Shown here: one piece after another, positions 6,518 to 56,328 of the stretch
Numbering within the stretch: position 1 is the first letter of the stretch
Layout: the number at the start of each line of letters is the position of its first letter
Assembly: GCA_963545265.1 (NCBI GenBank)
Contig: CAUUHY010000003.1
Span: 25,918-89,917 of the forward strand
Direction of reading: 5' to 3'
DNA from: an uncultured Eubacteriales bacterium
GTDB taxonomy: Bacteria > Bacillota_I > Bacilli_A > RF39 > UBA660
Length of the DNA: 64,000 bases
The notes under the pieces: generated by a model
Database searches by the model: none
What the model was told of the DNA's origin: nothing
The model's input: only the letters and a program-made list of their open reading frames with translations
Made by a program: the position numbers and the translations under genes

Positions 6518-7550
6518 GTCCAAAATTATGCCAGTTATAAAAAATGATGCATATAGTTTAGGATCAGTTAAAATAGCTCAAACTTTAGAAAAAGAAGGGA
6601 TAGATTTTTTTGCTGTTTGTACTATAAAAGAAGCATTGTTACTTAGAGAAAATAATATTAAGTCTAATATATTGCTTTTTTCTAAAGTATTTGATGATGA
6701 ATATTATTTGTTAAAAAATAACAATATCACATTAACTGCATATTCATTAGAAGAATTAGAAGAACTTAATAATTATTTAATTAAAGAAAATTTTTCTATA
6801 AATGCTCATTTAAAAATAGATACAGGTATGACTAGACTTGGATTTCTTTATTCTGAAAATGAAAAAGAAATTGATGATATATTAAGAGCATTTAAGTTTT
6901 CTAATATAAAGATAACAGGAATATATTCACATTTATCTTCAGCTGAAGAAGAAGATAGTAAATATAGTAATATGCAAATAAAACTTTTTAATGAAGTATT
7001 ATCTTTATTAAAACAAAAAAATATAAATTATGGTTTTACACATTTGTTTGCAAGTCATGCCGCACTAAATTATCCTGGTGAATATGATTATATTAGACCT
7101 GGTATGATTTTATATGGAATAACAGTAAGAGAAGATCTTAAAAATTTAAGTGATATAAAATTATATCCAGCAGTTAAGTTTTTTAGTAGAGTAATTTCTG
7201 TGAAAACTGTAAAAGAAAATACGCCTGTTTCATATTCTAGACTTTATATTACCGATAAAAAAACAGAAGTAGCAGTTGTTTCAGTAGGTTTTGCTGATGG
7301 ATATCAAAGAAACTTATCAAATGATTTTTATGTATATATTAATAATCAAAAATGCAATATTTTAGGTAGAATATGTATGGATCATATGATGGTTGATGTA
7401 ACGAATAAAAATGTTAAAGTAGGTGACATTGTAGAACTATTTGGAGACAATATAAAAATAGATGAAATATCTAAAAAACTTAATACTATTAATGGCGATA
7501 TATTGTGTGGTATTAAAAAAAGAGTGGAAATTAAATATGTAGAAAATTAA
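6447..7550 (+). CDS. alr: alanine racemase
   Basis: N-terminal PVIKNDAYSLG (PLP-lysine motif VVKANAYGHG); 367 aa; C-terminal beta-domain motifs (RICMDHMMVDVT); start overlaps yfhO by 71 nt. Confidence 0.8.
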   Translation: MRSYLEVNLNNIRKNLQEIRRITKSKIMPVIKNDAYSLGSVKIAQTLEKEGIDFFAVCTIKEALLLRENNIKSNILLFSKVFDDEYYLLKNNNITLTAYSLEELEELNNYLIKENFSINAHLKIDTGMTRLGFLYSENEKEIDDILRAFKFSNIKITGIYSHLSSAEEEDSKYSNMQIKLFNEVLSLLKQKNINYGFTHLFASHAALNYPGEYDYIRPGMILYGITVREDLKNLSDIKLYPAVKFFSRVISVKTVKENTPVSYSRLYITDKKTEVAVVSVGFADGYQRNLSNDFYVYINNQKCNILGRICMDHMMVDVTNKNVKVGDIVELFGDNIKIDEISKKLNTINGDILCGIKKRVEIKYVEN

Positions 7551-22732: not shown

Positions 22733-22733
22733 A

Positions 22734-24116
22734 ATGGAATTAAAATATATTTATGATAATATTCAAAATCCTTTGGATAATAATACTATAAGATACATAT
22801 ATGATAATTATGGATTTGTTCCTACTTATAATATAGTTGTAGGATTAGGTACTAAACCTAATACGAGGTTTGATATTCCTCAAAGAGATAAATATAATAA
22901 AATGTTATTTGATATATGGAAAAATAGTATTTTAAATTTATCTATGGAAAGAATAGAGGAATTAGAAAAAAGATTTCTTTACAAAGATATTAGAAGAATC
23001 AGACATAGATTATCTATGCCATTAGATGAAAAATATAATTTAAATACTACTTTGGGTATATATGATTTTTTAACTGAAGAAAAAATGGATAAAGCTTATT
23101 TTTGTATGCCTGAAAATTTACTTAATCATAGGTTTGTTCATACTATAAGTGAAAAAGTAGATTTATCAGAAGACACTTATTTTGATGTGGAACATAGACT
23201 TTATGTAAATATAGCTAATGAAAACGTTTATAAGTTAGCTCATAAATTAGTAGAGAAGTTTGGTGAAAAAAATCTACCATTTTATTTTAAATTTGAAGAT
23301 TTAAATAATAGAAAAGATGGATTTGTAATATATTCTGATACTAAAAATTTAGCTAAATATTCAGAATGTTTAGATGAAGTATATAGTGAAAATAAAGAAC
23401 TTAGAATGAGTACTTATTCACCATTAATGTTTGGTGGAAGAATAAGTGATTATTATTGTATAGGAGACGAACCAAACATTGAAGATAAAAGTTATTCTTT
23501 TAATACTTTAAGAGCAGAATGTATAGATAATGCGATGACAAGAAGTATTAGAAGATGGATGTATGAAAATCAAGATGTAGATTTAAAAAGAAATGGTAAA
23601 ATAGTTAAATTTAAAGATTATATGACTGATAAAATTGTGGATTTATTAATTAATGATATATATTCAGGAGAAAATAAATATAAAAATTATCATAATTTAC
23701 ATGAAAATGTATTTTCAGCTAGAAATATTGGAGAATTAAAAAAATCTTTAAAAGTTGGAGTAGATGGATATATTAACGGTAAAAAGTTAGAGCCTATGAA
23801 AGTATATGAAAATCCATGGTTAGATGAAGCAAGAGATAAGCCATCTAAATTACAAGGTATATTTAGTATGGGAATAGATCCTACTAAAAATACAAGGCCT
23901 AATTTTTTAGGGTCTGTATCACCTAGTATTATTGATGAACTTATAAAAGTAGAGCTTGGTAGTAAAATCATTCATAGATTTGCAGATTATAGTGGTTATT
24001 TTAAACACTATTTAATAGAAGAATTAAGAAAAAATAATATAGATGTAAATAAGCCATGCTTTAATATTGGGACAGAAGAAAAATTTAATAATCCTGATTA
24101 TTGGCATCAAATATAA
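22734..24116 (+). CDS. hypothetical protein (460 aa) occupying the usual mutL position; not MutL
   Basis: No GHKL ATPase motifs; no signal peptide; start 1 nt after mutS stop. Confidence 0.4.
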   Translation: MELKYIYDNIQNPLDNNTIRYIYDNYGFVPTYNIVVGLGTKPNTRFDIPQRDKYNKMLFDIWKNSILNLSMERIEELEKRFLYKDIRRIRHRLSMPLDEKYNLNTTLGIYDFLTEEKMDKAYFCMPENLLNHRFVHTISEKVDLSEDTYFDVEHRLYVNIANENVYKLAHKLVEKFGEKNLPFYFKFEDLNNRKDGFVIYSDTKNLAKYSECLDEVYSENKELRMSTYSPLMFGGRISDYYCIGDEPNIEDKSYSFNTLRAECIDNAMTRSIRRWMYENQDVDLKRNGKIVKFKDYMTDKIVDLLINDIYSGENKYKNYHNLHENVFSARNIGELKKSLKVGVDGYINGKKLEPMKVYENPWLDEARDKPSKLQGIFSMGIDPTKNTRPNFLGSVSPSIIDELIKVELGSKIIHRFADYSGYFKHYLIEELRKNNIDVNKPCFNIGTEEKFNNPDYWHQI

Positions 24117-24829: not shown

Positions 24830-26746
24830 ATGATAATGAATAAAAAAATTTCAAAGATATTTTTACTTCTTTTAATAACTTTTGTACTAATTTCTAGTTT
24901 AGCAATGTTACTTAAAGAAAAAAATACTAAAATTAATAATAAGCATCTTAAATTAAATTATGAACTTAGTTATGAAGAAGCTTTTCCAGATAAAGAATTT
25001 AGAAGATTAATTTTATCTATGTTATATAAACATTCTGAAGAGAAATGGGGAGAAAGAGAAGATAGAGAAATATATGGGGATCTTTATAGTGCTCTTAAAA
25101 TCACTGGTGATGCAGCAAATTCTGGAATTACAAGTGCTATTACAGATGAGGAATTAGAAAGATATAGTAAACAAAAAATAGATAAAAATTTTTTAGATAA
25201 AGTTCTTGTTTTGCACCCTAATTCAGAAGTTAAAAATTATCAAAATATTATTAATTTAACTGGAATTGAATATTTGAAAAATGTAAAAAGAATAGTAATA
25301 GCTAATTCTAAAATAAAAGAAGCAGATTTTAGTCAAAACCAAAAATTAGAAACTTTATTTTTAACTGAAAAATTTCATTCTACATATCAAATTCTGGACA
25401 TAGAGGGAACTTCAATACTTGAAAGAGTTAATATAAAAAGTAATGAAAATTTGAAACATTTAATTTTAAATTTTAATCCTAATAAAGAAAATACAGTTGA
25501 TTTAAGTGGTAATCCTAATTTAGAAGCTTTATATATAATAAAAAGTAACCTAAAAGAAATAGATTTAACTCATAATCCTAATTTAAATAGTTCTGATATA
25601 AATCTTCAAGGTAATAAACTTCAAAGTATTAAAGCTAACAGTCCTAGTGAAAATTTTAGATATGGAGCGAGTGAACAAAAAATAACTATTGAAGTTGATC
25701 AAGGAGTTCCTATAAAAATACCTTTAAAATTTAATGATACAGAATCTTATTTAGAAGGGACTGGATTTACTAGAGAAAATGACGTATATACTTTTAATCA
25801 AGTAGGAACACATACATATAATTTTTATAATAGACAAAGAGATTATAGTGGTACGGTAGAAGTTACTGTAACTGGAGGGGAAGCAAAAAACTTTACTCCT
25901 TTAATAACTAATGATAGTAGATGTTATGTAAATGAAAGGTGTAGTTTAGCTGATAATATTTATAATATACCAAGAGATGCTAATATAGTATCAGTAACAT
26001 CTTGTGATCATGGAAATGCAACAGGAATAATTTTAGTTCCTAATCAAAAAGGACTAGGAACTTGTGATGTTAAAATTACTTTTGGTGATGGTTCAACGAA
26101 AACATATAAAGTTAAAATACCAGTATTTGAAAAAAATATAAAAGAAATAGAACCATTTAAACCAATTTATCCAAAAAGTAAGTATATAGAAGGAGAATTT
26201 GCAAAAAATTTATTGCTTAGTTATTCTGAAGTACAAAATGAAAGAGATGATTATTTAAATATATTAAATAAAAAATCAAAATGTAATTATGAAACATTTA
26301 TTTGCGATAATATAAGGTATAAAACAGAAGCTTTTTATCGATCTATAGGAGATAAAGCAATTTCTGATAATCCAATACCAGGAAAAGCTTATGATTATTT
26401 TTCAGTAAATAATACAGCTATATTAGATAGTAAAGTTAAAGTATATAATAGTAAACAGATGGAACAAGTTGTTAGAAATTATCCTAATGGATCAAGTCTT
26501 ATAGATTGGCAAGGGGATGAAAATCAAAAAATATTTTATATTTATAATCAGTGGTTAAATGGAGTTCCTAATATATTAGAAACCACAATTCTAAGAGATA
26601 CAGATCATGATGGAATTCCTGATATAGATGATGAAGATGATGATAATGACGGAGTAAGTGATGCACAAGAAGTACTTGATAAAACTGATCCAAAAGATGC
26701 TAGTAGTTTTAAAGTAACAAAAATATGTTACAAAGTTAAAGGATAG
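24830..26746 (+). CDS. LRR/TSP3-motif surface protein, paralog A
   Basis: Signal/TM; LNYELSYEEAFPDKEFRRL motif; LRR block; DTDHDGIPDIDDEDDDNDGVSD; C-terminal about 185 aa identical to paralog B. Confidence 0.55.
   Translation: MIMNKKISKIFLLLLITFVLISSLAMLLKEKNTKINNKHLKLNYELSYEEAFPDKEFRRLILSMLYKHSEEKWGEREDREIYGDLYSALKITGDAANSGITSAITDEELERYSKQKIDKNFLDKVLVLHPNSEVKNYQNIINLTGIEYLKNVKRIVIANSKIKEADFSQNQKLETLFLTEKFHSTYQILDIEGTSILERVNIKSNENLKHLILNFNPNKENTVDLSGNPNLEALYIIKSNLKEIDLTHNPNLNSSDINLQGNKLQSIKANSPSENFRYGASEQKITIEVDQGVPIKIPLKFNDTESYLEGTGFTRENDVYTFNQVGTHTYNFYNRQRDYSGTVEVTVTGGEAKNFTPLITNDSRCYVNERCSLADNIYNIPRDANIVSVTSCDHGNATGIILVPNQKGLGTCDVKITFGDGSTKTYKVKIPVFEKNIKEIEPFKPIYPKSKYIEGEFAKNLLLSYSEVQNERDDYLNILNKKSKCNYETFICDNIRYKTEAFYRSIGDKAISDNPIPGKAYDYFSVNNTAILDSKVKVYNSKQMEQVVRNYPNGSSLIDWQGDENQKIFYIYNQWLNGVPNILETTILRDTDHDGIPDIDDEDDDNDGVSDAQEVLDKTDPKDASSFKVTKICYKVKG
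25958..26479 (+). repeat. 522-bp exact direct repeat, copy 1 (inside paralog A)
   Basis: Identical to 27933..28454 by direct comparison (offset 1975 bp). Confidence 0.8.
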
Positions 26747-26807: not shown

Positions 26808-28736
26808 ATGAAAAGTTCTAAAAAATTGCTAAATTTTATAATAATTTTATTGTTATTTCTAAGTTTTTTAAGTATATTTTTTATAAGTAAAAATAATAAA
26901 ATATTAAAAAAACAAGTTAAACTAAATTATGACAAAACTTACGAACAAGCTTTTCCAGATAAAGAGTTTAGAAGATTAATACTTACAATGCTTTATAAAT
27001 ATAATGAACGTGATTATGGTTTAGAGAGGAAGAGAGAGCATTTTGATACTTTTTATCATGCAATTAAACTTACAGGAGATTTATGGGATGCAGGTATAGA
27101 TAAAGCATTAACTGATGAAGAATTAAATAGATATAGTAAAGATAAGTTAGATAAGAATTTTCTTGAAAAAATAGTGGTAATACATACTAATCCAGATACT
27201 GAAACATATAAAAAAATTGCTGATTTAGCTGGTGTAGAGTATTTGCCAAATTTAGCAGTAGTTGCTATATCTGGTTCTAATATAAAATTAGCGCATTTTA
27301 ATTATAATCCTAAGTTAGAAACTTTATTTTTACCGGAGAGATTTTACCAAAGTCATTTCAAACATTATGTTCAAGGAACTTCTAAATTAGATAATGTAGA
27401 TCTTAGAAACAATAGGAATTTAAGACATCTTATATTAAATTTTGAACCGCATAAAGAAAATACTATAGATTTAAGTGGTAATCCTGATTTAGAAGCTATA
27501 TATATAGAAAGTAGTTCTTTAAAAGAAATAGATCTAACTAATAAAGGAAGATTAATGGATGATAAAAATATAAATTTAGAAAATAATAATCTTCAATTAA
27601 TTAAAGCTGATAAAGCTAATCCAGGATATAAATTTGGTGCAAGTAATCAAAAAATAAAAGTAAATGCTGAAAAAGGAGTTCCTATAAGGATACCATTAAA
27701 AGTAAATAATTATGATGCTTATTTAGAAGGTAGTGGATTTACTAGAGAAAATGACGTATATACATTTAATCAAGTAGGAACACATTATTATAATTTTAAT
27801 GATGATGACAGAGACTATAGTGGTACAGTAGAAGTTAATATAATTGGAGGGGATTCCAAAAATTTTACTCCTTTAATAACTACTAATGATAGTAGATGTT
27901 ATATAAATCAAAGCTGTAGTTTAGCTGATAAAATTTATAATATACCAAGAGATGCTAATATAGTATCAGTAACATCTTGTGATCATGGAAATGCAACAGG
28001 AATAATTTTAGTTCCTAATCAAAAAGGACTAGGAACTTGTGATGTTAAAATTACTTTTGGTGATGGTTCAACGAAAACATATAAAGTTAAAATACCAGTA
28101 TTTGAAAAAAATATAAAAGAAATAGAACCATTTAAACCAATTTATCCAAAAAGTAAGTATATAGAAGGAGAATTTGCAAAAAATTTATTGCTTAGTTATT
28201 CTGAAGTACAAAATGAAAGAGATGATTATTTAAATATATTAAATAAAAAATCAAAATGTAATTATGAAACATTTATTTGCGATAATATAAGGTATAAAAC
28301 AGAAGCTTTTTATCGATCTATAGGAGATAAAGCAATTTCTGATAATCCAATACCAGGAAAAGCTTATGATTATTTTTCAGTAAATAATACAGCTATATTA
28401 GATAGTAAAGTTAAAGTATATAATAGTAAACAGATGGAACAAGTTGTTAGAAATCATGGCAATGGAACTGGTGGAAAATTTATAAATTGGCAAGGTGATG
28501 AAGAAGAAAAAATTTATTATATTTTTCCTATTCAAAGTAATGTAGAAACGCTAGAAAACCCAAAATTTGAAACCACAATTCTAAGAGATACAGATCATGA
28601 TGGAATTCCTGATAAAGATGATGAAGATGATGATAATGATGGAATAAGTGATGCTCAAGAAGTACTTGATCAAACTGATCCAAAAGATGCTAGCAGTTTT
28701 AAAGTAACAAAAATATGTTATAAAGTTAAAGGATAG
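26808..28736 (+). CDS. LRR/TSP3-motif surface protein, paralog B (tandem duplicate)
   Basis: Same architecture as 24830..26746; 522-bp block 100% identical; nearly identical 3' UTR. Confidence 0.55.
   Translation: MKSSKKLLNFIIILLLFLSFLSIFFISKNNKILKKQVKLNYDKTYEQAFPDKEFRRLILTMLYKYNERDYGLERKREHFDTFYHAIKLTGDLWDAGIDKALTDEELNRYSKDKLDKNFLEKIVVIHTNPDTETYKKIADLAGVEYLPNLAVVAISGSNIKLAHFNYNPKLETLFLPERFYQSHFKHYVQGTSKLDNVDLRNNRNLRHLILNFEPHKENTIDLSGNPDLEAIYIESSSLKEIDLTNKGRLMDDKNINLENNNLQLIKADKANPGYKFGASNQKIKVNAEKGVPIRIPLKVNNYDAYLEGSGFTRENDVYTFNQVGTHYYNFNDDDRDYSGTVEVNIIGGDSKNFTPLITTNDSRCYINQSCSLADKIYNIPRDANIVSVTSCDHGNATGIILVPNQKGLGTCDVKITFGDGSTKTYKVKIPVFEKNIKEIEPFKPIYPKSKYIEGEFAKNLLLSYSEVQNERDDYLNILNKKSKCNYETFICDNIRYKTEAFYRSIGDKAISDNPIPGKAYDYFSVNNTAILDSKVKVYNSKQMEQVVRNHGNGTGGKFINWQGDEEEKIYYIFPIQSNVETLENPKFETTILRDTDHDGIPDKDDEDDDNDGISDAQEVLDQTDPKDASSFKVTKICYKVKG
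27933..28454 (+). repeat. 522-bp exact direct repeat, copy 2 (inside paralog B)
   Basis: Identical to 25958..26479. Confidence 0.8.
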
Positions 28737-35241: not shown

Positions 35242-35295
35242 TTTCTTTTTTTTTTAATAAATGATATTATGTTATATAGAATAGGGAGAGTAATA

Positions 35296-36549
35296 ATGAA
35301 GAAAAAAGTGTTAGTATTATTTGTATTACTATTATTACCTTTTATTACTTTAGCAGAAGAAGAAAAAAAAGATACGACTTTATCAAATAAAAATTTAATA
35401 GTCGAATGTATATATAGTGATGGTGGATTATATTCTTATGAATATAATGAAGCAGAAGATAAATTTGTAACTAATAGACAAGAATTTTTAGGAGTTGGTA
35501 AGAAAGTTGTTCCTTCTAATATTGTATTTTTATCAGAACTTACATCAAATAATGAATCTCTTACAGTTGTAGATAAAGACTTAACTTGTAAAAGATATAT
35601 TTATAGTGGAGTATCCAGAAGAGAAGATGAAGAAGTAAAGAAAGATAATATTAAAAACATTTATATGTTTGTTAAAGGAAGTAATTCATCAGAAGACTTT
35701 ATGAAAGTGTATGAAGCTAACATAGATAGTTATACAGGAAAATGGTATACAATTGGAATTCCCGTATTTAAAACAGAAATTAGAAAAGCTTTAGAAACTG
35801 CAGTTGTAGAACAAAAAAGATATGAATTAGTAAATCAAAGATATCGTATATTAGATTCTAGTAATATTCAGCCAAAGAAGGTTTGTCACTTTGAATCTAG
35901 CAGTAAAAAAGATACAGTTTCTACTAGAAAAGATATAATAACTGCTAATATATATTCTAATCATACATTTATTAAGACAAGTGATGATTACTATAATTTA
36001 CTTGGAAAAGAAGAAAGTAAAGTTATAAATGATATTTGCAATAATAGAGAAGATGATAGTAAGGTATATCTTAATGATTCTGTTGTATCTGCAACTGGTG
36101 ATTCTAGTGGAGGAGTTAAAATAGCTCCTAAAACATACGATAATAAGAAACAAACATATTTAACTGTTGCACAAAAAGAAAGTAAAGTTAATTTTTTAGA
36201 GTATAAAAAAATCTCTGAAAATAATATGTTAGGAAAAGAAACAGATGATAAACTTTGTGAAACGATTCCAAATGTTGCAAAAATATTAAGAGAAGTTATT
36301 AAGTTTGGAAGATTAGGTATAGGAGCTATAGTAATTATACTTATAGCGATTGATATACTTCACTTTGTATCTAGTTTATCACCTGCAGAACAACTACCTA
36401 TAACAATTAAAAAAATTAGGAATAGAATTATATTATTGGTAGTTATTTTATTGTTACCAATACTTACTAGTGTTCTTGTTACTTTATTAAAAAGTGCAAA
36501 TACTATAGAAACATCAACTATACAAGTTATAGATTGTTTATTTAAATAG
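35296..36549 (+). CDS. secreted protein with two C-terminal TM helices (417 aa), function unknown
   Basis: RBS gggagag; signal peptide KKVLVLFVLLLLPFITLA; several Cys; two terminal hydrophobic helices. Confidence 0.45.
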   Translation: MKKKVLVLFVLLLLPFITLAEEEKKDTTLSNKNLIVECIYSDGGLYSYEYNEAEDKFVTNRQEFLGVGKKVVPSNIVFLSELTSNNESLTVVDKDLTCKRYIYSGVSRREDEEVKKDNIKNIYMFVKGSNSSEDFMKVYEANIDSYTGKWYTIGIPVFKTEIRKALETAVVEQKRYELVNQRYRILDSSNIQPKKVCHFESSSKKDTVSTRKDIITANIYSNHTFIKTSDDYYNLLGKEESKVINDICNNREDDSKVYLNDSVVSATGDSSGGVKIAPKTYDNKKQTYLTVAQKESKVNFLEYKKISENNMLGKETDDKLCETIPNVAKILREVIKFGRLGIGAIVIILIAIDILHFVSSLSPAEQLPITIKKIRNRIILLVVILLLPILTSVLVTLLKSANTIETSTIQVIDCLFK

Positions 36550-36557
36550 GAGAGAAA

Positions 36558-38786
36558 ATGCCAATATTAGATATTTTAAAAACAGTTGATTTTGCACAAC
36601 TTGGTATAGATATAGTTGGACTATTACTTAGTAGATGGTTTATGCTAAATGGTATTATTTATATACTAAGATCTATCAGTTATTTTGTTGATTCTCAATT
36701 TGTAAATTTAATTGGTATGGTATATAAGTACTTTAATTTACTTTTGAAAGGTGAGATGTTTAATGAACAAATAATATCGCAATTATTATCGAGTATATAC
36801 GTATTTATTGGACTTATTATATTCTTTAGATTAGCAACTGTGTTAATTAAATACTTAGTTAATCCAGAAACTATTGAAAGTTCTGTTGATAAAACTGGAT
36901 TATTTTCGGGCCTTGTTAAAAGAATAGTAATAGGTAGTATTATGATAGCTTTAGTACCATTTTTATTTAGTACTTTAAATAAGCTTCAAATAGCTATAGT
37001 AGAAGATAATGTTGTACAAAATATATTTATACAAAATGAAGCTTTTAAACAATTTAATAAACGTCATGCTCAAAATGGAGGACAATATTTAGCTAATTAT
37101 GTTTTAGCTGGTTTTATAAGACCAACAACTAATAGTTCTTCCTCAGTAAAAACGAATTATGAATCTATGAAAAAATCAGCAAATCCAGATTTAATCAACA
37201 TAAATGAAGGAGTAGTACCGGGGATAATTGTTAACTATAGTTATACATATTATTTTATAGTTTCTACATATGTTCTTTTTATGGTATTTAAAATAATGAT
37301 TGGATATGCACTAGATGTTATTACTAGGTTTTTTAAAACTCTTTTATATCAATTAATGGCACCTATTGCTATAGTAGAATATATGGTAAGTGGAGATGGT
37401 GGAATATTTGAAAAGTGGAAAACTAGTGTAATAGCTAATTATTTAGCATTATTTGTTAGAATGTTATCTATTTGGTTTACAATATTTGTACTTTCTTTGA
37501 TGACTGCAGATGGATTACCAAATGGTAACTTATTAAAAACAGATGATGATTTATTAAGAGCAATAATAGTTTTAGCGTTAATAGCGTTTATGAAAGATTT
37601 ACCAAGATATGTTGGAAGCATACTTGGATTTGATTTAGTACAAGAAAGTTCTGCTATGAGTATGGTAAGCGGTGCAGCAACTGCAGTTCTTGGAGCAGCA
37701 GGAGCTGGACTTATGGCTGGAAGTGGAATAATTGGAGGTACTTTAAATAGATTAGGGGGTACTTTAAATAGAAATATTGGAAGTAAAATAGCTGGAGCTA
37801 GAGAAGCTAGTAGAAATGCCATTAATAGAGGAAGAGAGATGGGTCTTACTGGTGACCAATTAAGGCAAGCAAGTAGAAATGCTTTAAGAGATTATGGAAA
37901 TCAACAAGTTGCTGAAAGAAGAAGTAGAGGTAATGCTCTACAAAGAATGAGAACTGCAGCAGCAGAAGGTATAAGAAATAATGCCATTGGAGACTTAAGA
38001 GAGACTGTTGGTGGAATTACAAGTATTGCAGATCAAATAACAGGTCTTCATCAAACAGGAGCTCCAGCTGCAGCACAAAATTTATTTAATAAAATGTTTC
38101 CAGAAGCAAGAAATCAAGGTGGAGGCCAAAATCAAAATCAAGAGCAAAATCCAACTCCAACTCCACCAATTATACCAAGACCTAATAGAGGTAGACATTT
38201 TGATTTACTTAATGAAAGTAATTTAGATAATATACGTGCAACAGGAAATGGTGTTAATAGAGATGAATCTATAGAAAATATGACTGATTTCTTGTTTAGA
38301 GCAGATAATAATCAAGACTATAGTGAATATTTAAGAAATGTACAAAATGATAATAACAATACATCTGATGTTCCAGCTCAAGATAGAAATGTTATTTTAA
38401 CAAGAGCAGGAATTACTGACAATAACGCAACAGTTGTTAGAAATTCTCATACATTAGAAGAAATAGCTAGAAATATATCAAGTAACTCTAATAATACTAT
38501 AAGTTACGAACAAGCTTATGAAACAGCTAGAACATATATTGAAGGAGCAGGTATTCAGGCCCAAAGCAGATATACTGTAACTGATTCTAATGGAGCAGTT
38601 AATACTGTTGATATACCATGTACTGATCAAAATGGAAATTTCTTAAGAACAGGAGAATATACTTTATCAGATACTAATATTGCAGATATTACTAATGATA
38701 TTAGAAATAGATATTGGGGAGAAACAGCTAGAGATTATTTTGATACTAATTTAGAAGAAAATAATGGTGGCGTAAATAGAAAGTAA
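36558..38786 (+). CDS. polytopic membrane protein (742 aa) with G/A/R/Q/N-rich C-terminal region; VirB6/TrbL-like topology, function unknown
   Basis: About 8 TM helices in the first ~370 aa; then a low-complexity segment (GAATAVLGAAGAGLMAGSGIIGGTLNRLGGTLNRN...QGGGQNQNQEQNPTPTPP); locally elevated GC. Confidence 0.5.
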   Translation: MPILDILKTVDFAQLGIDIVGLLLSRWFMLNGIIYILRSISYFVDSQFVNLIGMVYKYFNLLLKGEMFNEQIISQLLSSIYVFIGLIIFFRLATVLIKYLVNPETIESSVDKTGLFSGLVKRIVIGSIMIALVPFLFSTLNKLQIAIVEDNVVQNIFIQNEAFKQFNKRHAQNGGQYLANYVLAGFIRPTTNSSSSVKTNYESMKKSANPDLININEGVVPGIIVNYSYTYYFIVSTYVLFMVFKIMIGYALDVITRFFKTLLYQLMAPIAIVEYMVSGDGGIFEKWKTSVIANYLALFVRMLSIWFTIFVLSLMTADGLPNGNLLKTDDDLLRAIIVLALIAFMKDLPRYVGSILGFDLVQESSAMSMVSGAATAVLGAAGAGLMAGSGIIGGTLNRLGGTLNRNIGSKIAGAREASRNAINRGREMGLTGDQLRQASRNALRDYGNQQVAERRSRGNALQRMRTAAAEGIRNNAIGDLRETVGGITSIADQITGLHQTGAPAAAQNLFNKMFPEARNQGGGQNQNQEQNPTPTPPIIPRPNRGRHFDLLNESNLDNIRATGNGVNRDESIENMTDFLFRADNNQDYSEYLRNVQNDNNNTSDVPAQDRNVILTRAGITDNNATVVRNSHTLEEIARNISSNSNNTISYEQAYETARTYIEGAGIQAQSRYTVTDSNGAVNTVDIPCTDQNGNFLRTGEYTLSDTNIADITNDIRNRYWGETARDYFDTNLEENNGGVNRK

Positions 38787-38800
38787 TTATTTTAATAATA

Positions 38801-38835
38801 AAAAACTATGTAAAGAATTACATAGTTTTTATTTC
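38801..38835 (+). terminator. rho-independent terminator
   Basis: aaaaactatgtaa-agaat-tacatagttttt followed by atttctttg. Confidence 0.65.
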
Positions 38836-38838
38836 TTT

Positions 38839-38866
38839 GTAAAAAAAATATCTCTTTTGAGATATT
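38839..38866 (-). terminator. rho-independent terminator for rpmB (minus strand)
   Basis: aatatctc-tttt-gagatatt stem with an A-run on + (a T-run on -). Confidence 0.55.
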
Positions 38867-39038
38867 AAATTAATCCTAACTTTCTGAATGTTCTTAATTC
38901 TTTTGCACTAATTCTTATTTTAGTTCTATTAATTTTTACAACTTGAAGGTTTAATCCTTGTTTTTTTCTAGTTGCATTTAAAGCATGAGATCTTAAATTT
39001 TTAAAGTTAGGTTTTCTGCTTGTTACATTAATTGCCAT
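38865..39038 (-). CDS. rpmB: 50S ribosomal protein L28 (not in supplied ORF track)
   Basis: Minus-strand translation MAINVTSRKPNFKNLRSHALNATRKKQGLNLQVVKINRTKIRISAKELRTFRKLGLI aligns with B. subtilis L28 ([23 protein letters not shown]...); RBS ggaggca 3-9 nt upstream. Confidence 0.75.
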   Translation of the reverse strand: MAINVTSRKPNFKNLRSHALNATRKKQGLNLQVVKINRTKIRISAKELRTFRKLGLI

Positions 39039-39268
39039 GATGCCTCCTTGTTTAATTAATTACTTTAAGATTTTAACATATAATATACTTAATAGTCAAT
39101 AACTATATATTCTATGCTTTTTACTTTTGTATATTTTTAAATGATATAAAACAAAAAATATAAAATGATTTAATGAAAAATTAATTTTTTTTAAATAAAA
39201 AATGTTACAATTATATAAAATAAAACAAGTAATATATTATAAAACTAATTTATGGGAGTATTTTTAAT

Positions 39269-48582: not shown

Positions 48583-51500
48583 ATGTTAGATAATAAAAAA
48601 ATATTTGAAGTTTTAAATATAGATAATGATAAATATATGGATGCTATAAAATTTACAAAAATTAAGCATAAAACTAAAGATAAAATTTTATTAGTTTATA
48701 TAACATCAAAGATAAGATTAGAAATAGATTTTTATCATAAATTAAAAGAAGGATTTAAATCTCTTTTTTTAGTTAATGAAGTAGAAATATTTTTAGAAGT
48801 AGATGATTATAAAGATGATTACTTTAAAGATTATTATGAAGAGTTAATAGAAGATTATAAAGATTTATCTATTTATAGATATTTAAGTAGTATTTATAAA
48901 AAAGATGGAGTTTATAAAATAGATGTAATTAATGAAGTTGAAAAAGAAAAAATAAAAGAAGTAGCAGAGCATTTAAGTGAAGAATTAAAAAAACTTGGTT
49001 ATTTATATGATATAGATGTTTATATTAATGAAGAGAAAAATAAACTTTTAGATAAAGAATTAGAAAAAGAAAGAGAAACTAGTTTAAATAGTGTTAGTTT
49101 TAGTGATAATAAACCTAGTTTTACACCATCTTCTCCTATAATGAGAACTAATTTAAGAGAGATGAAAAACGATTATGAAATAACACCTTTAAATAATTTA
49201 AGAGTAGATCCAAATGCTGACAATATATACTGTGTTAGAGGTATTGTTTTTGAAGTTGAATTTCGTGAAACTAAAAAAGAAAATGATATATATATATCTA
49301 AGATAAACGATGATACAAACTCTTTAGTAATTAAAACATTTGTTAAGAAGTCTGATAAAGAAATGCAAAGTTTTTTAGGAAAATTATTAAAAGTTGGGAA
49401 TAATATATGTGTGAGGGGAGTACTTTCACATGATCCATTTGATAACGGTGAACTTAGCTTAATGTTTAGAGAAATAAAACAAATTGAAATAGTAAAAGAA
49501 GATATAAAAGAAAAAAGAAAATCTAGAGTAGAACTACATGCTCACTCTAAACTTTCTGTTTTAGATTCTTCGATTGATCCTAAAGATTTAGTTAAAAAGG
49601 CATATAAACTTGGACATAGAGGAGTTGCTATAACAGATCACGATGGAGTTTTAGCTTTTCCGGAAGTTTTTAAAGAAGTAAAAGCAATAAATAAGACTTT
49701 AAGTGAAGATGAAAAATTTAAAGGATTATATGGGACAGAATTAGTACTTGTAGATGATTTTGTAGAAATAGTAATAAATCCTAAAAGATATATTAAAAAT
49801 CAAGAATATGTAGTGTTTGATGTTGAAACAACAGGACTTGATGCTAAAGATAAAAATCAAATGATCGAAATAGGTGCTGTTAAGATAAAAGATGGAAAAA
49901 TTATAGATAGATTTGATGAACTTATTTCTTGTTCTTATCCACTTGATGAAAAAATTGTTTCTTTAACTAATATAACTGATGAGATGTTAAAGGGTAAAAG
50001 AAGTGAAGAAGAAGTTGTTAAATCTTTCTTAGAATTTGTCTCTAGTAGTATCTTAGTTGCGCATAATGCTAGATTTGATATGTCGTTTTTAAATTATGCT
50101 ATTGAAAAATATAATTTAAATCCAGTTAAAAATGATATTTTAGATACACTTATCTTATCTAGATATTTAACACCTAATGAAAGATATCATAATTTATCTA
50201 CTGTAACTAAAAGATATGAAGTAAACTTTAGTGAAGATAATCATCATAGAGCAGATTACGATGCAGAAGCTACTGCTTTAGTACTTTTAAAAATGTTTGA
50301 TAAATTAGATGTTGAAACTATAGAAGAGTTAAAGAAGATAAAAGTTCAAGATAAAACTATTATTTTTAAAAATAAAATAGAGATGTTAAATGATACTTTT
50401 GTTGTATTTGATACCGAAACAACAGGTCTTAATGCAGTAAACGATAAACTTATTGAAATAGGTGCAGTTAAGATAAAAAACGGAGTTATTATAGATAGGT
50501 TTGATGAACTTATTGATCCAGGTATTCCAATACCACAAAAGATTACAGAAATTACTACTATTACTGATGAAATGGTAAAGGGAAAAAGAAAAGAAAAAGA
50601 AGTAATTAAAGACTTTATGGACTGGGTTAAAGATTATCCGATGGTTGCTCATAATGCTCATTTTGATGTTTCTTTTATTAAAAATAGTTTAGCTAATAAC
50701 AATTATAAAACAATAGAAAATCCAGTAATTGATACTTTGGTTTTATCAAGATTTTTGGATAATGAAGAAAAAAGACACTCATTATCTGCAATTACAAAAA
50801 GATATGAAATAGAATTTGATGAAGATAATCACCATAGAGCAGATTATGATGCAGAAGGTACAGCTTTAGTGTTTCATAAGATGTTACAAAAAATTGCCCC
50901 AAGAGATATTTTATATTTAGAAGATTTACCAAATATCGTATCAAAAGATGATATACATAAATTTGGTAGAACTTATCATATTAATTTATTAGCTCAAAAT
51001 AGAGAAGGTTTGAAGAACTTATTTAAGATAGTGTCTTTTGCTAATACAAAATACTTTTATAAAGGTGAAGCTAGAATACTTAGAAGTGTTTTAGAATCTT
51101 TAAGAGAAAATATTTTAGTATCTTCTGGATGTTATCAATCTGAAATATTTGTTGAATCTAGATATGTATCAGAAAACGAACTTGATACAATGATTGATTT
51201 TTATGATTATGTCGAGGTTCAACCTCCAGTTTGTTATTCACAGTTAATTGATTCTGGAGATTTTAACTCTATAGAAGAAATAGAAGAAAAAATTAAATAT
51301 ATTATCGAAAGAGTTAAAGCAAGAGGAAAAATAATCGTTGCAACTGGAGATGTACATACTTTAAATAAAGATGATGAAATATATAGAAAAATCTTAATTA
51401 ATCAAAAAGTACCAGGTGGTGGACGACATCCATTAAATAGAAATAATATTAAAAATATACCTAATACTTACTTTAGAACTACTGAAGAGATGTTAGAAGA

Positions 51501-53514
51501 CTTTAGCTTTTTAGATGAGAAATTAAGAGAAGAAATAGTAGTAGATAATAGTTTGAAAATATTAGATTTATGTGAAAACATCGAAGTAATTATCGATACT
51601 AAAGGAATACCTTTTTCTCCTAAGATAAAAGATAGTGATAAAGAAACTAAGAGAATAGTTTATGAAAAAGCTCATGAACTTTATGGAGAAAATTTACCAG
51701 GGTATGTAGAAAATAGAATAGAAGAAGAACTAAAAGGTATAATAGGTGGAGGATTTGATGTTATTTATTTAATAGCACAAAAACTCGTTAAGAAAAGTAA
51801 TGATGATGGTTATGTAGTTGGATCTAGAGGTAGTGTTGGATCTAGTTTTGTTGCAACTATGATGGGTATTACAGAAGTTAATCCTTTAAAAGCACATTAT
51901 CTATGTCCAAATTGTAAACATTCAATATTTGAAATAGATGGAAAAAGTATATCGGAAGATTATTCTTCAGGTTATGATTTACCAGAGAAAAAATGTCCTA
52001 AATGTGATACTTTAATGAAAGGTGAAGGTCAAGATATGCCTTTTGCTACATTCTTAGGATTTAATGCCGATAAAGTACCAGATATAGATTTAAACTTTTC
52101 AGGAGATTATCAATCTCATGCTCATGACTATACAAAAGTACTTTTTGGTGAAGATAAAGTATTTAGAGCAGGAACTGTTGGAACAGCTGCAGAAAAAACA
52201 GCATTTGGTTATGTAAAAGCATATCTTGAAGAAAAAGGTATAAGTAACTTTAGAAAAGCTGAAATAGAAAGAATCGCTAAGAAGTTAGTAGGTGTTAAAA
52301 GAACAACAGGTCAACACCCTGGAGGAATAGTCGTAGTACCTGATTATATGGATATCTTTGATTTTACTCCATATCAGTATCCAGCTAACGAAAAAGGTGA
52401 ATGGTTTACAACTCACTTTGATTATCATGCAATTGATGAATGTCTATTAAAACTAGATATACTTGGACACGATGATCCTACGATGATAAAAATGTTAGAA
52501 GACTTATCTGGTCTTGATATAAAAAAGATTAATGTAGGAGATGAAAAAATACTATCTTTATTTTCATCTACTGAAGTAATGGGTGTAACTCCAGAACAAA
52601 TCGGTTGTAAAATAGGAACGCTAGGTCTTCCAGAACTTGGAACTGACTTTGTAATAAATATGTTACTTGAAACTAAACCAAAAACATTTTCAGAACTTGT
52701 TAAAATATCAGGTTTATCTCATGGAACTGATGTATGGAATAACAATGCTCAAGATTTAGTTAAAGCTGGTATTGAATTTAAAAACATTATTGGATGTAGG
52801 GATGACATAATGGTTAATCTTATAAGTTATGGAGTAGAACCTTTAAAAGCATTTAAGATAATGGAGTTTGTTAGAAAAGGTAAACCAAGTAAAGAAAAAG
52901 AACAGTGGTTAGAATATGCAGAAGTTATGAAAGCACATAACGTACCAGAATGGTATATAGAATCTTGTCATAAAATTAAGTATATGTTTCCTAAAGCTCA
53001 TGCTTGTGCTTATGTATTAAGTGCACTTAGAATTGCGTATTTTAAAGTTTATTATCCAATATATTACTATGCAGCATACTTTTCTATTAGAGAACATGAC
53101 TTTGATGTTTATGCTATGGTAAACGGATATGATAAGATAAACGAAACTATTTCTTTATTAGAAGAAAAAGGATATTCTAGATCAAATAAAGAAGATAGTG
53201 TATTAGGTTGCTTAAAAGTAGTAAGAGAAGCAAGTAGTAGAGGTATAAAATTCTTAGTACCAAGAGTTAACGAAAGTTATGCTAAGAAGTTTAAAGTAAT
53301 AGATGATAAAACTTTATTACTTCCATTTATTGCAATGGATGGTCTAGGAGAAGTAGTAGCGGAAAATATCGTTAAAGAAAGAAATGTAAAAGAATATAGT
53401 AATATTGAAGAATTTGAAAAAAGAGGTAAAATATCAAATACTCTTATTAAAGAAATGAGACTTTTAAATATGTTTGATGGAATGGATGAGTCTAGTCAAC
53501 TTAGTTTATTTTAG
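48583..53514 (+). CDS. polC: DNA polymerase III PolC-type, with tandemly duplicated 3'-5' exonuclease domain
   Basis: PHP (HAHSKLSVLDS..ITDHDGV), two DEDDh exo modules (FDVETTGL...HNARFD...HHRADYDA and FDTETTGL...HNAHFD...HHRADYDA), zinc module CPNC...CPKC, polymerase core; 1643 aa versus about 1440 typical. Confidence 0.95.
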   Translation: MLDNKKIFEVLNIDNDKYMDAIKFTKIKHKTKDKILLVYITSKIRLEIDFYHKLKEGFKSLFLVNEVEIFLEVDDYKDDYFKDYYEELIEDYKDLSIYRYLSSIYKKDGVYKIDVINEVEKEKIKEVAEHLSEELKKLGYLYDIDVYINEEKNKLLDKELEKERETSLNSVSFSDNKPSFTPSSPIMRTNLREMKNDYEITPLNNLRVDPNADNIYCVRGIVFEVEFRETKKENDIYISKINDDTNSLVIKTFVKKSDKEMQSFLGKLLKVGNNICVRGVLSHDPFDNGELSLMFREIKQIEIVKEDIKEKRKSRVELHAHSKLSVLDSSIDPKDLVKKAYKLGHRGVAITDHDGVLAFPEVFKEVKAINKTLSEDEKFKGLYGTELVLVDDFVEIVINPKRYIKNQEYVVFDVETTGLDAKDKNQMIEIGAVKIKDGKIIDRFDELISCSYPLDEKIVSLTNITDEMLKGKRSEEEVVKSFLEFVSSSILVAHNARFDMSFLNYAIEKYNLNPVKNDILDTLILSRYLTPNERYHNLSTVTKRYEVNFSEDNHHRADYDAEATALVLLKMFDKLDVETIEELKKIKVQDKTIIFKNKIEMLNDTFVVFDTETTGLNAVNDKLIEIGAVKIKNGVIIDRFDELIDPGIPIPQKITEITTITDEMVKGKRKEKEVIKDFMDWVKDYPMVAHNAHFDVSFIKNSLANNNYKTIENPVIDTLVLSRFLDNEEKRHSLSAITKRYEIEFDEDNHHRADYDAEGTALVFHKMLQKIAPRDILYLEDLPNIVSKDDIHKFGRTYHINLLAQNREGLKNLFKIVSFANTKYFYKGEARILRSVLESLRENILVSSGCYQSEIFVESRYVSENELDTMIDFYDYVEVQPPVCYSQLIDSGDFNSIEEIEEKIKYIIERVKARGKIIVATGDVHTLNKDDEIYRKILINQKVPGGGRHPLNRNNIKNIPNTYFRTTEEMLEDFSFLDEKLREEIVVDNSLKILDLCENIEVIIDTKGIPFSPKIKDSDKETKRIVYEKAHELYGENLPGYVENRIEEELKGIIGGGFDVIYLIAQKLVKKSNDDGYVVGSRGSVGSSFVATMMGITEVNPLKAHYLCPNCKHSIFEIDGKSISEDYSSGYDLPEKKCPKCDTLMKGEGQDMPFATFLGFNADKVPDIDLNFSGDYQSHAHDYTKVLFGEDKVFRAGTVGTAAEKTAFGYVKAYLEEKGISNFRKAEIERIAKKLVGVKRTTGQHPGGIVVVPDYMDIFDFTPYQYPANEKGEWFTTHFDYHAIDECLLKLDILGHDDPTMIKMLEDLSGLDIKKINVGDEKILSLFSSTEVMGVTPEQIGCKIGTLGLPELGTDFVINMLLETKPKTFSELVKISGLSHGTDVWNNNAQDLVKAGIEFKNIIGCRDDIMVNLISYGVEPLKAFKIMEFVRKGKPSKEKEQWLEYAEVMKAHNVPEWYIESCHKIKYMFPKAHACAYVLSALRIAYFKVYYPIYYYAAYFSIREHDFDVYAMVNGYDKINETISLLEEKGYSRSNKEDSVLGCLKVVREASSRGIKFLVPRVNESYAKKFKVIDDKTLLLPFIAMDGLGEVVAENIVKERNVKEYSNIEEFEKRGKISNTLIKEMRLLNMFDGMDESSQLSLF

Positions 53515-53522
53515 GGTGAGGC

Positions 53523-55247
53523 ATGGATAATATAATAGAAGAAGTAAGAAAGAAAACAGATATAGTAGATTTAATATCAGAATATATACCACTAATAAAA
53601 AAAGGTAAGAATTATTTTGGTGTTTGTCCTTTTCATGATGACTCTAATCCATCTATGTCAGTATCTAGAGAAAAACAAATATATAAATGTTTCTCTTGTG
53701 GAGCAAGTGGTAATATTTATAACTTTTTAATGGATTATGAACATATTGATTTTAAAGATGCTTTATCTAAATTATCTTCTAAACTTGGAATAAATGTAGA
53801 AACTACTAGTATTAAAGTAAATGATAAGTTTGATAAATTTTATGAAATATATGATTTAACTAGTAAAGTTTATCAAAATAACTTATTATCTGAAAAAGGT
53901 AGTAGTGCAAGAAACTATTTGAAATCTAGAAATATAGGTATAGAAGAGATAAAAAAATTTAATATAGGTTTATCTTTTTCTAATAATCAAATAGTTAAAC
54001 AATTAGAAAAAAAATATAATTTAATAGATTTAGAAGATATTGGACTTATATCAGGAAATCATGATATATTTCAAAATCGTATTATGTTTCCTTTAATGAA
54101 TTTAGAAAATAATACAGTGGCGTTTTCTGGAAGAATTTATGATAGTCTTAGTAAAGATTCTAAATATATAAATACTAAAGAGACGAATATCTTTAAAAAA
54201 GGTGAAATATTATATAACTATTATAAATCTAAAGAAGAAGTAAGAGTTAAGAAGTATCTAATCTTAGTTGAAGGTTTTATGGATGTTATAAGACTTGCTA
54301 CAGTAGGTATTAATAACGTAGTAGCAACTATGGGTACTTCTCTTACGATAAATCAAATAAAATTATTAAAGAGATTATCAAATAATATATATTTATGTTT
54401 TGATGGAGATAATCCTGGTAAACTTGCAAATATTAATAATGGTGAAGAATTAATTAAAGCAGGTGTTGATATAAAAGTAATATCTTTAGATAATAATGAA
54501 GATCCTGATTCTTTTGTTTTAAAAAATGGTAAAGAAGAGTTTGAAAAATTAATTTTAGAAGCTAAAAGTTATCAAGAATATTACATGGATTATCAAAAAA
54601 ATACTATTTCAACTACAGATATTAAAGAAGTAACAGAATATATTAATAAAGTATTAGAAAAACTTAAATATAATAATAACGAAATAGAAAAAGAGTTAGT
54701 TTTAAAAAAACTTGCAAAAGACTTTGATATATCGTATAATACCCTAGAAAATCGCTTAAAAGATTATAGTTTAGAAAAAAGTACTAACTTGGAGATTAAA
54801 GTAGAGAAAAAAGAAGAAACTAAAGCGGTAGTTAATAAATATTATGTTGCTAGTAGAGACTTAATAATGGGTATGTTATACGATAATAAAGTAATAGATA
54901 TTTATAAAAACTATAATATACAGATGATAAACGATAAGTTTGATGCGGTTTTAAATGAAATATTATATAGATATGATGTTTATGGAAGTGTAGAAGTTGC
55001 TGAAATATTTGATGAACTTATATCAAATGATGAATTAAGAGAGTTTTTTAAAACATTAATTACTAATGAAGAAGTATATAGTTATGATTACTATAAAGAT
55101 TGTATTAAGAGTATTAATGAATGTGTAACTATTCAAAAAATCAAATATTTGCAAAAGATGATTGAAGAAGAAAAAGATGTTAATAAGCAAATAGAATATC
55201 TAAATACTATGGGGATACTAAAAAATAATTTAGAGAAGGGGATTTAA
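53523..55247 (+). CDS. dnaG: DNA primase
   Basis: CHC2 zinc finger [13 protein letters not shown]...CFSCG; Toprim EGFMDV...DGDNPG. Confidence 0.9.
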
Positions 55248-55248
55248 C

Positions 55249-56328
55249 ATGTCTAAAGAATTAAAAACTTTTAAAGATAAAGAAGAATATTTAATAAAAA
55301 AAGGAAAAGAAGAGGGATTTATTACATATGAAGAAATAGCTAAGACTTTAAAAGGTTTAGATGTAGATTCTGATAATTTAGATGAACTATACAATAAATT
55401 AATTGCTAATAATATAGAAGTAATTTCTGAAGAAGAAAATAATGATGATACAGAAACAGAACTATTTACTGAAGATTTAGAAAGTACTAAAGATGTAAAA
55501 ATAAATGATTCAGTAAAAATGTATTTAAAAGAAATTGGTAAGATAAAACTTTTATCTGCTGATGAAGAATTTGAATATGCTAAAAGAGCAGTAGAAGGGG
55601 ATGAAGAAGCTAAGAAAAAACTTAGTGAATCTAACTTAAGATTAGTTGTATCTATTGCAAAAAGATACTTAGGAAGAGGTTTAAGATTCTTAGATCTTAT
55701 TCAAGAAGGAAATATTGGTTTAATGAAAGCAGTAGATAAGTTTGATCCAGATAAAGGGTTTAAATTTTCTACATATGCTACATGGTGGATTAGACAAGCT
55801 ATTACAAGAGCTATAGCTGATCAAGCAAGAACTATAAGAATACCAGTTCATATGGTTGAAACTATGAATAAGTTAAAAAGAGAAGAAAGACAACTACAAC
55901 AAGAATTAAATAGAGAACCAACTGATGAAGAACTTGCTGAAAGAATGGGAATGCCAGTAGATAAAATAAGAGAAGTACATAAGATAGGACAAGATCCAGT
56001 ATCTCTTGAAACACCAATTGGTGAAGAAAATGATTCTCATTTAGGAGACTTTATTAAAGATGAAAGTTCTATGTCTCCAGAAAAATATGCTATTAGTGAA
56101 ATGTTAAAAAGTGAATTAAATGATGTTTTAAAAACACTTACTGAAAGAGAAGAAAAAGTATTAAGACTTAGATTTGGAATAGATGATGGACAAAGTTTAA
56201 CTTTAGAAGAAGTAGGTAAGATATTTGGAGTTACTAGAGAAAGAATTAGACAAATAGAATCTAAAGCTTTAAGAAAATTAAAACATCCATCTCGTAGTAA
56301 AAAATTAAAAGATTTTTTAATAAATTAA
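55249..56328 (+). CDS. sigA: RNA polymerase primary sigma factor
   Basis: Regions 1.2-4.2: [70 protein letters not shown]. Confidence 0.95.

Follow-up and report, generated by a model that had tools for sequence, protein, structure and literature searches.

The window analysed here, a stretch of 64,000 nucleotides of contig CAUUHY010000003.1 from an uncultured, very AT-rich gut bacterium, carries a polC gene (48583..53514, + strand) whose 1643-aa product, a PolC-type DNA polymerase III alpha, contains two consecutive and complete DEDDh exonuclease domains, hereafter exo1 and exo2. This architecture arose by a single, old, in-frame duplication that has been kept since, and both copies are under purifying selection. 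We consider it probable that this ancient tandem duplication left two active 3'-5' exonucleases, with exo2 acting as the cis proofreader of the polymerase and exo1 as an extra editor. In Firmicutes, PolC serves as the leading replicase, is essential and is a target for antibiotics, and a single inserted proofreading domain is regarded as one of its hallmarks; to our knowledge, a DnaQ-like proofreading module is inserted in the PHP domain of every PolC.

Two exonuclease domains are inserted in the PHP domain of PolC

The polC open reading frame (ORF) was assigned through Pfam, NCBIfam and Protein Data Bank matches. Specifically, its product scores 1860.9 bits against the PolC equivalog NF001688 (cut-off 873) and 1671 bits against TIGR01405 (cut-off 1043), phmmer matches it to the solved PolC structures 9qpc and 3f2b with E = 0, and Pfam recognises PHP, RNase_T (twice), DNA_pol3_alpha, finger and HHH_6 domains. 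Every feature of the PolC family that we looked for was found, apart from the canonical count of one exonuclease domain.

The PHP domain is split into an N-terminal part, preceding the insertion (aa 316-405; 49528..49797, +; Pfam PHP stretch 317-392), and a C-terminal part (about aa 773-1000; 50899..51582, +; second Pfam PHP stretch). These two stretches flank both RNase_T matches, in agreement with the preliminary description of this DNA, which had placed the exonuclease domains inside PHP. The insertion holds exo1 (aa 406-576; 49798..50310, +) and exo2 (aa 603-772; 50389..50898, +), both delimited by a domain hidden Markov model and by Pfam RNase_T, and, between them, a linker (aa 577-602; 50311..50388, +) made up of the duplicated post-exonuclease linker followed by the duplicated pre-exonuclease linker, into which the alignment of the two paralogs extends. 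This linker is the most variable segment, 9 of its 26 sites varying among 19 alleles.

Several lines of evidence bear out the proposal that the two segments are consecutive PolC-type exonuclease domains. The RNase_T family (PF00929) matches two separate stretches of the protein (whole-protein E = 9.3e-75), the best of which is aa 607-764, in exo2. By BLASTP, the two copies share 101 of 188 residues (54% identity, E = 3e-70). The Exo I DxE, Exo II D and Exo III H-x4-D motifs are complete in each of them: reading codon by codon, the DEDDh residues are D413, E415, D499, H555 and D560 in exo1, and D610, E612, D695, H751 and D756 in exo2, where they occupy invariant columns of alignment A1. The full catalytic set claimed for both copies in the preliminary description is therefore present, and the six motifs quoted there all lie where it had placed them. 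When aligned separately, exo1 corresponds to residues 446-603 of 9qpc and exo2 to residues 446-642; since both map to the single exonuclease domain of this structure, the second segment is a second exonuclease domain, and the alternative of its being an ordinary PolC region is rejected.

The offset between the copies is 197 aa (588-591 nt in the DNA). Copy-to-copy similarity continues into the linkers on either side, which indicates that the duplicated unit is the whole inserted module. From aa 604 to aa 1643 the protein aligns contiguously to residues 447-1471 of 9qpc, and the 1440-aa homolog P0016 aligns to it twice, over aa 60-597 and over aa 601-1643. PolCs with a single exonuclease domain measure 1431-1472 aa, and the 197-aa duplicated unit accounts for the extra length of the window protein, as had been suggested for an excess of about 200 aa.

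With regard to the other domains, the nine metal-ligand positions of PHP all show the expected residues (H319, H321, D328, H353, E386, H799, C850, D923 and H925), and the first five of these sit at invariant or nearly invariant columns of alignment A1; by the motif criterion of PMC12926913, PHP is potentially a third candidate nuclease site. The polymerase core, comprising palm, thumb and fingers (aa 1023-1452; 51649..52938, +; Pfam DNA_pol3_alpha 1023-1295 and finger 1298-1452), holds a CxxC...CxxC zinc module and the PDIDLNF catalytic motif, and C1108, C1111, C1138, C1141, D1167 and D1169 fall at invariant columns of the same alignment. A C-terminal helix-hairpin-helix duplex-binding domain follows (aa 1554-1636; 53242..53490, +; Pfam HHH_6). 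The equivalog score, the strong purifying selection and the neighbouring core genes (nusA, infB, dnaE, dnaG, rpoD, ftsA/Z and mutS) all fit a protein that would serve as the chromosomal replicase.

The tandem arrangement occurs in one clade

Among the 120 best PolC homologs, 117 have one exonuclease domain, and the three with two are P0001, P0002 and P0003 (1631 aa), which are 99%, 91% and 56% identical to the window PolC, respectively; the search for the duplication in relatives, which the preliminary description had recommended, was thus positive. In a profile-free scan of 1.84 billion representative proteins with the tandem segment as query, only P0003, representing the tandem cluster, covered the whole query (399 bits, against 228 for the next match). 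The other matches in several stretches that have more than one complete exonuclease domain are short proteins other than PolC. When the tandem segment alone was used in a second, word-indexed search for homologs, this returned fragments only and added no tandem protein; a scan of metagenomes gave a single copy at 75 of the 80 loci returned, and a scan of viral contigs gave single-domain matches only, with no tandem. As far as the databases searched show, tandem-exonuclease PolC is confined to a single clade. Its members are uncultured, cell-walled bacteria with very AT-rich genomes (about 23% GC), known mainly from metagenome assemblies, and their PolC and DnaE are of the Bacilli type.

Other long PolCs were considered and set aside. 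P0126, P0030, P0043, P0144 and L012 (1600-1690 aa) owe their length to N-terminal expansions and have one exonuclease domain each. P0133 was not counted as a third tandem lineage, as it is a truncated fragment whose tail resembles the normal return to PHP. Two side observations concern the exonuclease domain in other proteins. The PolCs of loci L013 and L015 have a small insertion within the domain, ahead of the HHR motif. In addition, five proteins other than PolC (P0136, P0139, P0183, P0187 and P0240; 505-1045 aa) contain two complete DEDDh domains, or three in the case of P0139, which shows that tandem arrays of this domain, apparently uncharacterised ones, exist outside PolC.

Both copies are maintained by purifying selection

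The ratio of nonsynonymous to synonymous substitution rates (dN/dS) between the window protein and P0002 is 0.18 for exo1 and 0.10 for exo2, compared with 0.07 for the C-terminal part of PHP plus the polymerase (aa 773-1643) and 0.17 for the N-terminal region. Purifying selection acts on both copies. The two domains are present in each of the 19 distinct full-length alleles, which are invariant at the 10 catalytic residues. We also compared three lineages at 51 columns conserved to 90% or more in single-exonuclease PolCs. At these columns exo2 deviates 0, 1 and 2 times, and exo1 3, 5 and 9 times, the window copies themselves deviating at 0 (exo2) and 3 (exo1) of the 51. In the window lineage, the copies did not differ significantly in a relative-rate test (22 versus 16 changes, p = 0.33). 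Judged by these comparisons, exo2 is the conservative, near-canonical copy, and exo1 a maintained but somewhat freer one.

Structural models predict two similar folds

An AlphaFold2 model of aa 312-1511 reached a mean predicted local distance difference test score (pLDDT) of 86.7 and a predicted template modelling score (pTM) of 0.74, with a template modelling (TM) score of 0.68 to 9qpc. When the tandem module was modelled by itself, the mean pLDDT was 90.2 and the pTM 0.63. In the module model, the order of secondary-structure elements is identical in exo1 and exo2. The pLDDT of the exo1 block is mostly about 85-97 in this model and about 76-93 in the larger one, and exo2 is comparable in both confidence and secondary structure; the linker, at about 66-79, has the lowest values of the module. 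Single exonuclease domains superimpose on epsilon/DnaQ structures with TM scores of 0.85-0.87, and no solved chain matching both domains at once was found in the fold comparison. A defined packing of the two domains as a pseudo-dimer, as known from RNase T dimers, is conceivable but unsupported by the module pTM of 0.63.

Possible roles of the two exonuclease domains

The whole DnaQ-like proofreading module, together with its flanking linkers, was duplicated in tandem and in frame in the ancestor of the clade, and both copies are predicted to fold as DEDDh exonucleases, which we propose to be tethered at one insertion point in PHP. Because the five metal-binding and general-base residues are kept in each copy and selection acts on both, the two domains are most likely catalytically active 3'-5' exonucleases. 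Being continuous with the C-terminal part of PHP and the more conservative of the two, exo2 would be the ordinary cis proofreader of PolC. In turn, exo1, carried on a variable linker of about 26 residues, would be a second tethered nuclease providing the replisome with extra editing capacity, which might affect the fidelity of replication. Such an effect, or sub-functionalisation of one copy, had been put forward as a possibility in the preliminary description; the sequence data themselves show that selection maintains both copies and that exo1 is somewhat the less canonical of the two. The candidate roles of the second exonuclease domain are additional proofreading in cis or proofreading in trans for the exonuclease-less DnaE.

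Some points weigh against this proposal. Retained catalytic residues are not proof of catalysis, and exo1 has changed, throughout its lineage, at positions conserved in other PolCs (D425N, P450C/I and F568L). In the P0003 lineage, exo1 has evolved significantly faster than exo2 (38 versus 11 changes, p = 1e-4), an acceleration that could reflect relaxed or altered function. Finally, the individual domains are confidently folded in the models, but their mutual orientation is not confidently predicted (pTM 0.63).

A specific version of the same explanation casts exo1 in the role of a dedicated trans proofreader or of an otherwise specialised nuclease, which would edit 3' ends made by DnaE or process some other fork substrate, while exo2 would edit the primer end of PolC. 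The PolC exonuclease of B. subtilis acts in trans to correct errors made by DnaE (PMC5627055). In the window, dnaE (44849..47710, +; Pfam and NCBIfam) encodes a 953-aa protein whose N-terminal PHP domain reads MYTPIYLKTNYSFLES and therefore lacks the HxH metal ligands, and neither Pfam nor NCBIfam detected an exonuclease domain in it. Moreover, dnaE and polC adjoin at all the tandem loci, the lineage-wide substitutions of exo1 at conserved PolC-exonuclease positions have left its active site intact, and the variable, low-confidence linker fits a mobile domain. This evidence is purely circumstantial, however. The dnaE-polC adjacency is also seen at the single-exonuclease loci L012, L016, L018 and L019 and so is not tied to the duplication, and an exonuclease-less DnaE3 is usual in Bacilli, for which a single exonuclease domain, that of PolC, is enough (PMC12926913). 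We accordingly regard a dedicated trans role as a minority possibility. It is likewise only tentatively that we envisage a division of proofreading labour at a two-polymerase fork, with exo2 in charge of the PolC product and exo1 of the DnaE product or, for example, of an RNA-DNA primer end. If true, nature would here have separated two functions, proofreading in cis and in trans, which fall to a single domain in B. subtilis.

The main rival to the proposal of two active nucleases holds that exo1 is a catalytically silent structural or interaction module, such as a spacer or a platform for DNA or for a partner protein, which still bears the motifs. That exo1 is the less canonical copy, with a dN/dS and a polymorphism slightly above those of exo2, and that it is the copy accelerated in the P0003 lineage, would agree with such a state. 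Nevertheless, its five catalytic residues are kept in 19 of 19 alleles and also in the 56%-identical lineage, whose exo1 orthologs are about 44% diverged, a divergence over which the loss of some of these residues would be expected; in addition, exo1 is no faster than exo2 in the window lineage (p = 0.33). On balance, we think a silent exo1 unlikely.

The second domain originated by one internal duplication

The phylogenetic data point to a single event within PolC. Over 819 aligned columns outside the exonuclease region, the tandem PolCs are monophyletic with 100% bootstrap support; the distance between the window and P0003 PolCs is 0.45, as large as that separating the window PolC from other Bacilli-type PolCs. 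The two lineages' exo1 copies cluster with each other (63% bootstrap), and P0003 exo1 is 56% identical to window exo1, versus 47% at most to any single-exonuclease PolC. There are four columns at which exo1 and exo2 of both lineages have states in common that are rarely seen among 144 single-exonuclease PolCs, an example being the change of E to I/V at aa 524/720, which occurs in 3% of them. The clade support, the grouping of the exo1 copies and the shared rare states together indicate one internal duplication in the common ancestor, as opposed to repeated events or an acquisition from outside.

The alternative of a foreign origin for exo1, for example from the PolC of a different organism or from a free-standing exonuclease of the DnaQ or DinG type, can appeal to the fact that its similarity to other PolC exonuclease domains (median 56%) is about the same as its similarity to exo2 (56%), and that the six copies do not form one clade in a neighbour-joining tree of the short domain (0 of 100 bootstraps). 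On the other hand, exo1 nests with Bacilli-type PolC exonuclease domains, as exo2 does, the rare derived states exemplified by aa 524/720 are common to both paralogs, the duplicated unit spans both PolC-specific linkers in register, and DinG, DnaQ and epsilon score far lower as matches (59-76 bits, versus 138 for PolC). A foreign origin of exo1 is thus very improbable.

The duplication is neither recent nor an artefact

Tandem repeats are in general a known source of assembly error. At the DNA level, exo1 and exo2 are 67% identical and their longest common word is 15 nt, so that short-read assemblers would not confuse the copies. The two blocks in which DNA identity reaches 79-85% correspond to stretches of identical peptide, the codon usage of the genome being extremely biased, and the synonymous divergence (dS) between the paralogs, 0.7-0.9, is similar to that between orthologs of the two tandem lineages; a recent duplication or gene conversion is, on these grounds, unsupported.

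The tandem was found in more than 10 independent assemblies, among them at loci L001 and L002 (both P0003), L003, L004, L005 and L006 and on the metagenome contigs L008-L011; L005 and L006 belong to GTDB species representatives, both with the tandem. P0001, the 90% cluster of the window protein, comprises 374 member sequences, on contigs of up to 848 kb. A 469-kb contig (BNJS01002252.1, L020), probably an uncorrected long-read assembly, contains at 5900-7300 the polC region of the window species, with many frameshifts and with both exonuclease copies in tandem. The preliminary description had itself raised a collapsed or expanded repeat as a possible objection, which does not stand given the 67% DNA identity, the many independent assemblies and the presence of the tandem in a 56%-identical lineage. 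Considering that the architecture is the same in all these assemblies, including the two species representatives and the error-rich long contig, and that the polC frame is open throughout and under purifying selection, there is a negligible probability that errors of assembly or gene calling, such as a chimera or an expanded repeat, produced the tandem.

Comparison with known replicases

The canonical PolCs of B. subtilis and G. kaustophilus (3F2B) and that of 9qpc share with the window protein the N-terminal region and OB domain, the split PHP, the zinc module, the palm, the thumb, the fingers and also the helix-hairpin-helix domain, in matching order; identity of the window PolC to close relatives is 56-63%. 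They differ from it in that the PHP insertion of the window protein houses two exonuclease domains, with a total length of 1643 aa instead of 1431-1472 aa.

Variation in accessory domains has precedents. In a study of about 2000 genomes, Timinskas et al. (2014) described PolC variants that include the Exo-less PolC of Clostridia and Negativicutes and two Lactococcus PolCs with a tandem OB duplication (PMC3919608). These variants resemble the present case in showing that PolC tolerates the loss or tandem duplication of accessory domains; in Lactococcus, however, the duplicated domain is OB and not the proofreader. A duplicated exonuclease domain is not among the PolC variants listed in that study, a term search of the main text of a 2026 survey of more than 3000 species (PMC12926913) returned no mention of a tandem exonuclease, and a full-text literature search for tandem, duplicated or second exonuclease domains retrieved nothing relevant to PolC. 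The tandem-exonuclease PolC is a new architectural variant of a well-known enzyme, for which no earlier description was found.

More than one candidate 3'-5' editing site per replicase is also present in the mycobacterial replisome, which combines the PHP exonuclease of DnaE1 with a non-canonical DnaQ (PMC11348249), and in clostridial PolC, to which PMC12926913 attributes an active PHP plus a DnaQ domain; the window PolC potentially has three such sites. In these systems the proofreaders have different folds or belong to separate polypeptides, whereas the window PolC combines two paralogous DEDDh domains in one chain. A DEDDh proofreader attached to a C-family polymerase, covalently or not, is likewise found in the Bacteroidetes DnaE1 with an N-terminally fused DnaQ and in the alpha-epsilon core of E. 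coli, but in both cases it is a single proofreader attached elsewhere.

As regards the pair of polymerases, the window resembles B. subtilis in encoding PolC together with a DnaE devoid of the PHP HxH ligands and of a detected exonuclease domain. The trans correction described in B. subtilis, which takes place within a DnaE-PolC-template complex (PMC5627055), is a known task that a second exonuclease domain could take over; there, one exonuclease domain does both jobs, while the link between exo1 and DnaE is here only a candidate one.

The finding of two tandem proofreaders in PolC would surprise replication specialists. Two intact proofreaders kept for a long time in one polypeptide raise the question of how the primer end is shared between the polymerase site and several editing sites, and also that of the proofreading capacity needed in an extremely AT-rich genome. 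As each exonuclease site can be inactivated separately, the enzyme lends itself naturally to telling proofreading in cis apart from the correction of DnaE errors in trans proposed for B. subtilis. Furthermore, the case shows that architectural variants of core replication proteins escape surveys that consider only complete genomes from cultured species.

Gene neighbourhood and other features of the window

The window has a G+C content of about 23%, almost all its genes lie on the + strand, and the GC skew is positive throughout (+0.13 to +0.40); its ORFs are intact with translation table 11. The genes identified encode a YfhO-family membrane protein, alanine racemase and transketolase, and include ftsA, ftsZ, mutS, nusA, infB, dnaE, polC, dnaG, rpoD, trmK, cdsA, rseP, efp, three tRNAs and a FemAB-family gene.

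Genes for replication and transcription lie close together in 44849-56328, where dnaE, an unassigned ORF, polC, dnaG and rpoD follow one another. The unassigned ORF (270 aa; 47757..48569, +) is matched by neither Pfam nor NCBIfam. A 37%-identical homolog occupies the matching position in the P0003 locus (L001:9190-9990), and others lie upstream of single-exonuclease PolCs (L013:2950-3732 and L015:2212-2991); the ORF may encode a putative, so far unrecognised replication-associated protein. The primase gene dnaG (53523..55247, +; Pfam) lies beyond polC, with rpoD (55249-56328, +; Pfam) directly after it. The order dnaE, 266-270-aa ORF, polC, dnaG is one and the same at all tandem-exonuclease loci. 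Nevertheless, dnaE is directly upstream of polC also in the single-exonuclease relatives L012, L016, L018 and L019, and both this adjacency and the 270-aa neighbour were rejected as markers of the duplication, as each is also found beside single-exonuclease PolCs.

Further observations concern other parts of the window. The gene following mutS (20219-24116 region) is not mutL but a 460-aa ORF with only a weak HopA1-family match and no NCBIfam match. Three large proteins, encoded at 14926-17796, 24830-26746 and 26808-28736, each bear, close to the C-terminus, a bacterial TSP3 (thrombospondin type 3-like) repeat and may be paralogous surface proteins. At 35269-44101, three consecutive large ORFs (426, 742 and 1610 aa) are essentially without family assignment, the only match among them being a sub-threshold one to an HD domain near the C-terminus of the 1610-aa protein. 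Apart from 61243-62160 the window is entirely co-oriented: its sole clear features on the minus strand are found there, where a tRNA-Glu/Asn/Ile cluster stands next to a 194-aa ORF without family matches.

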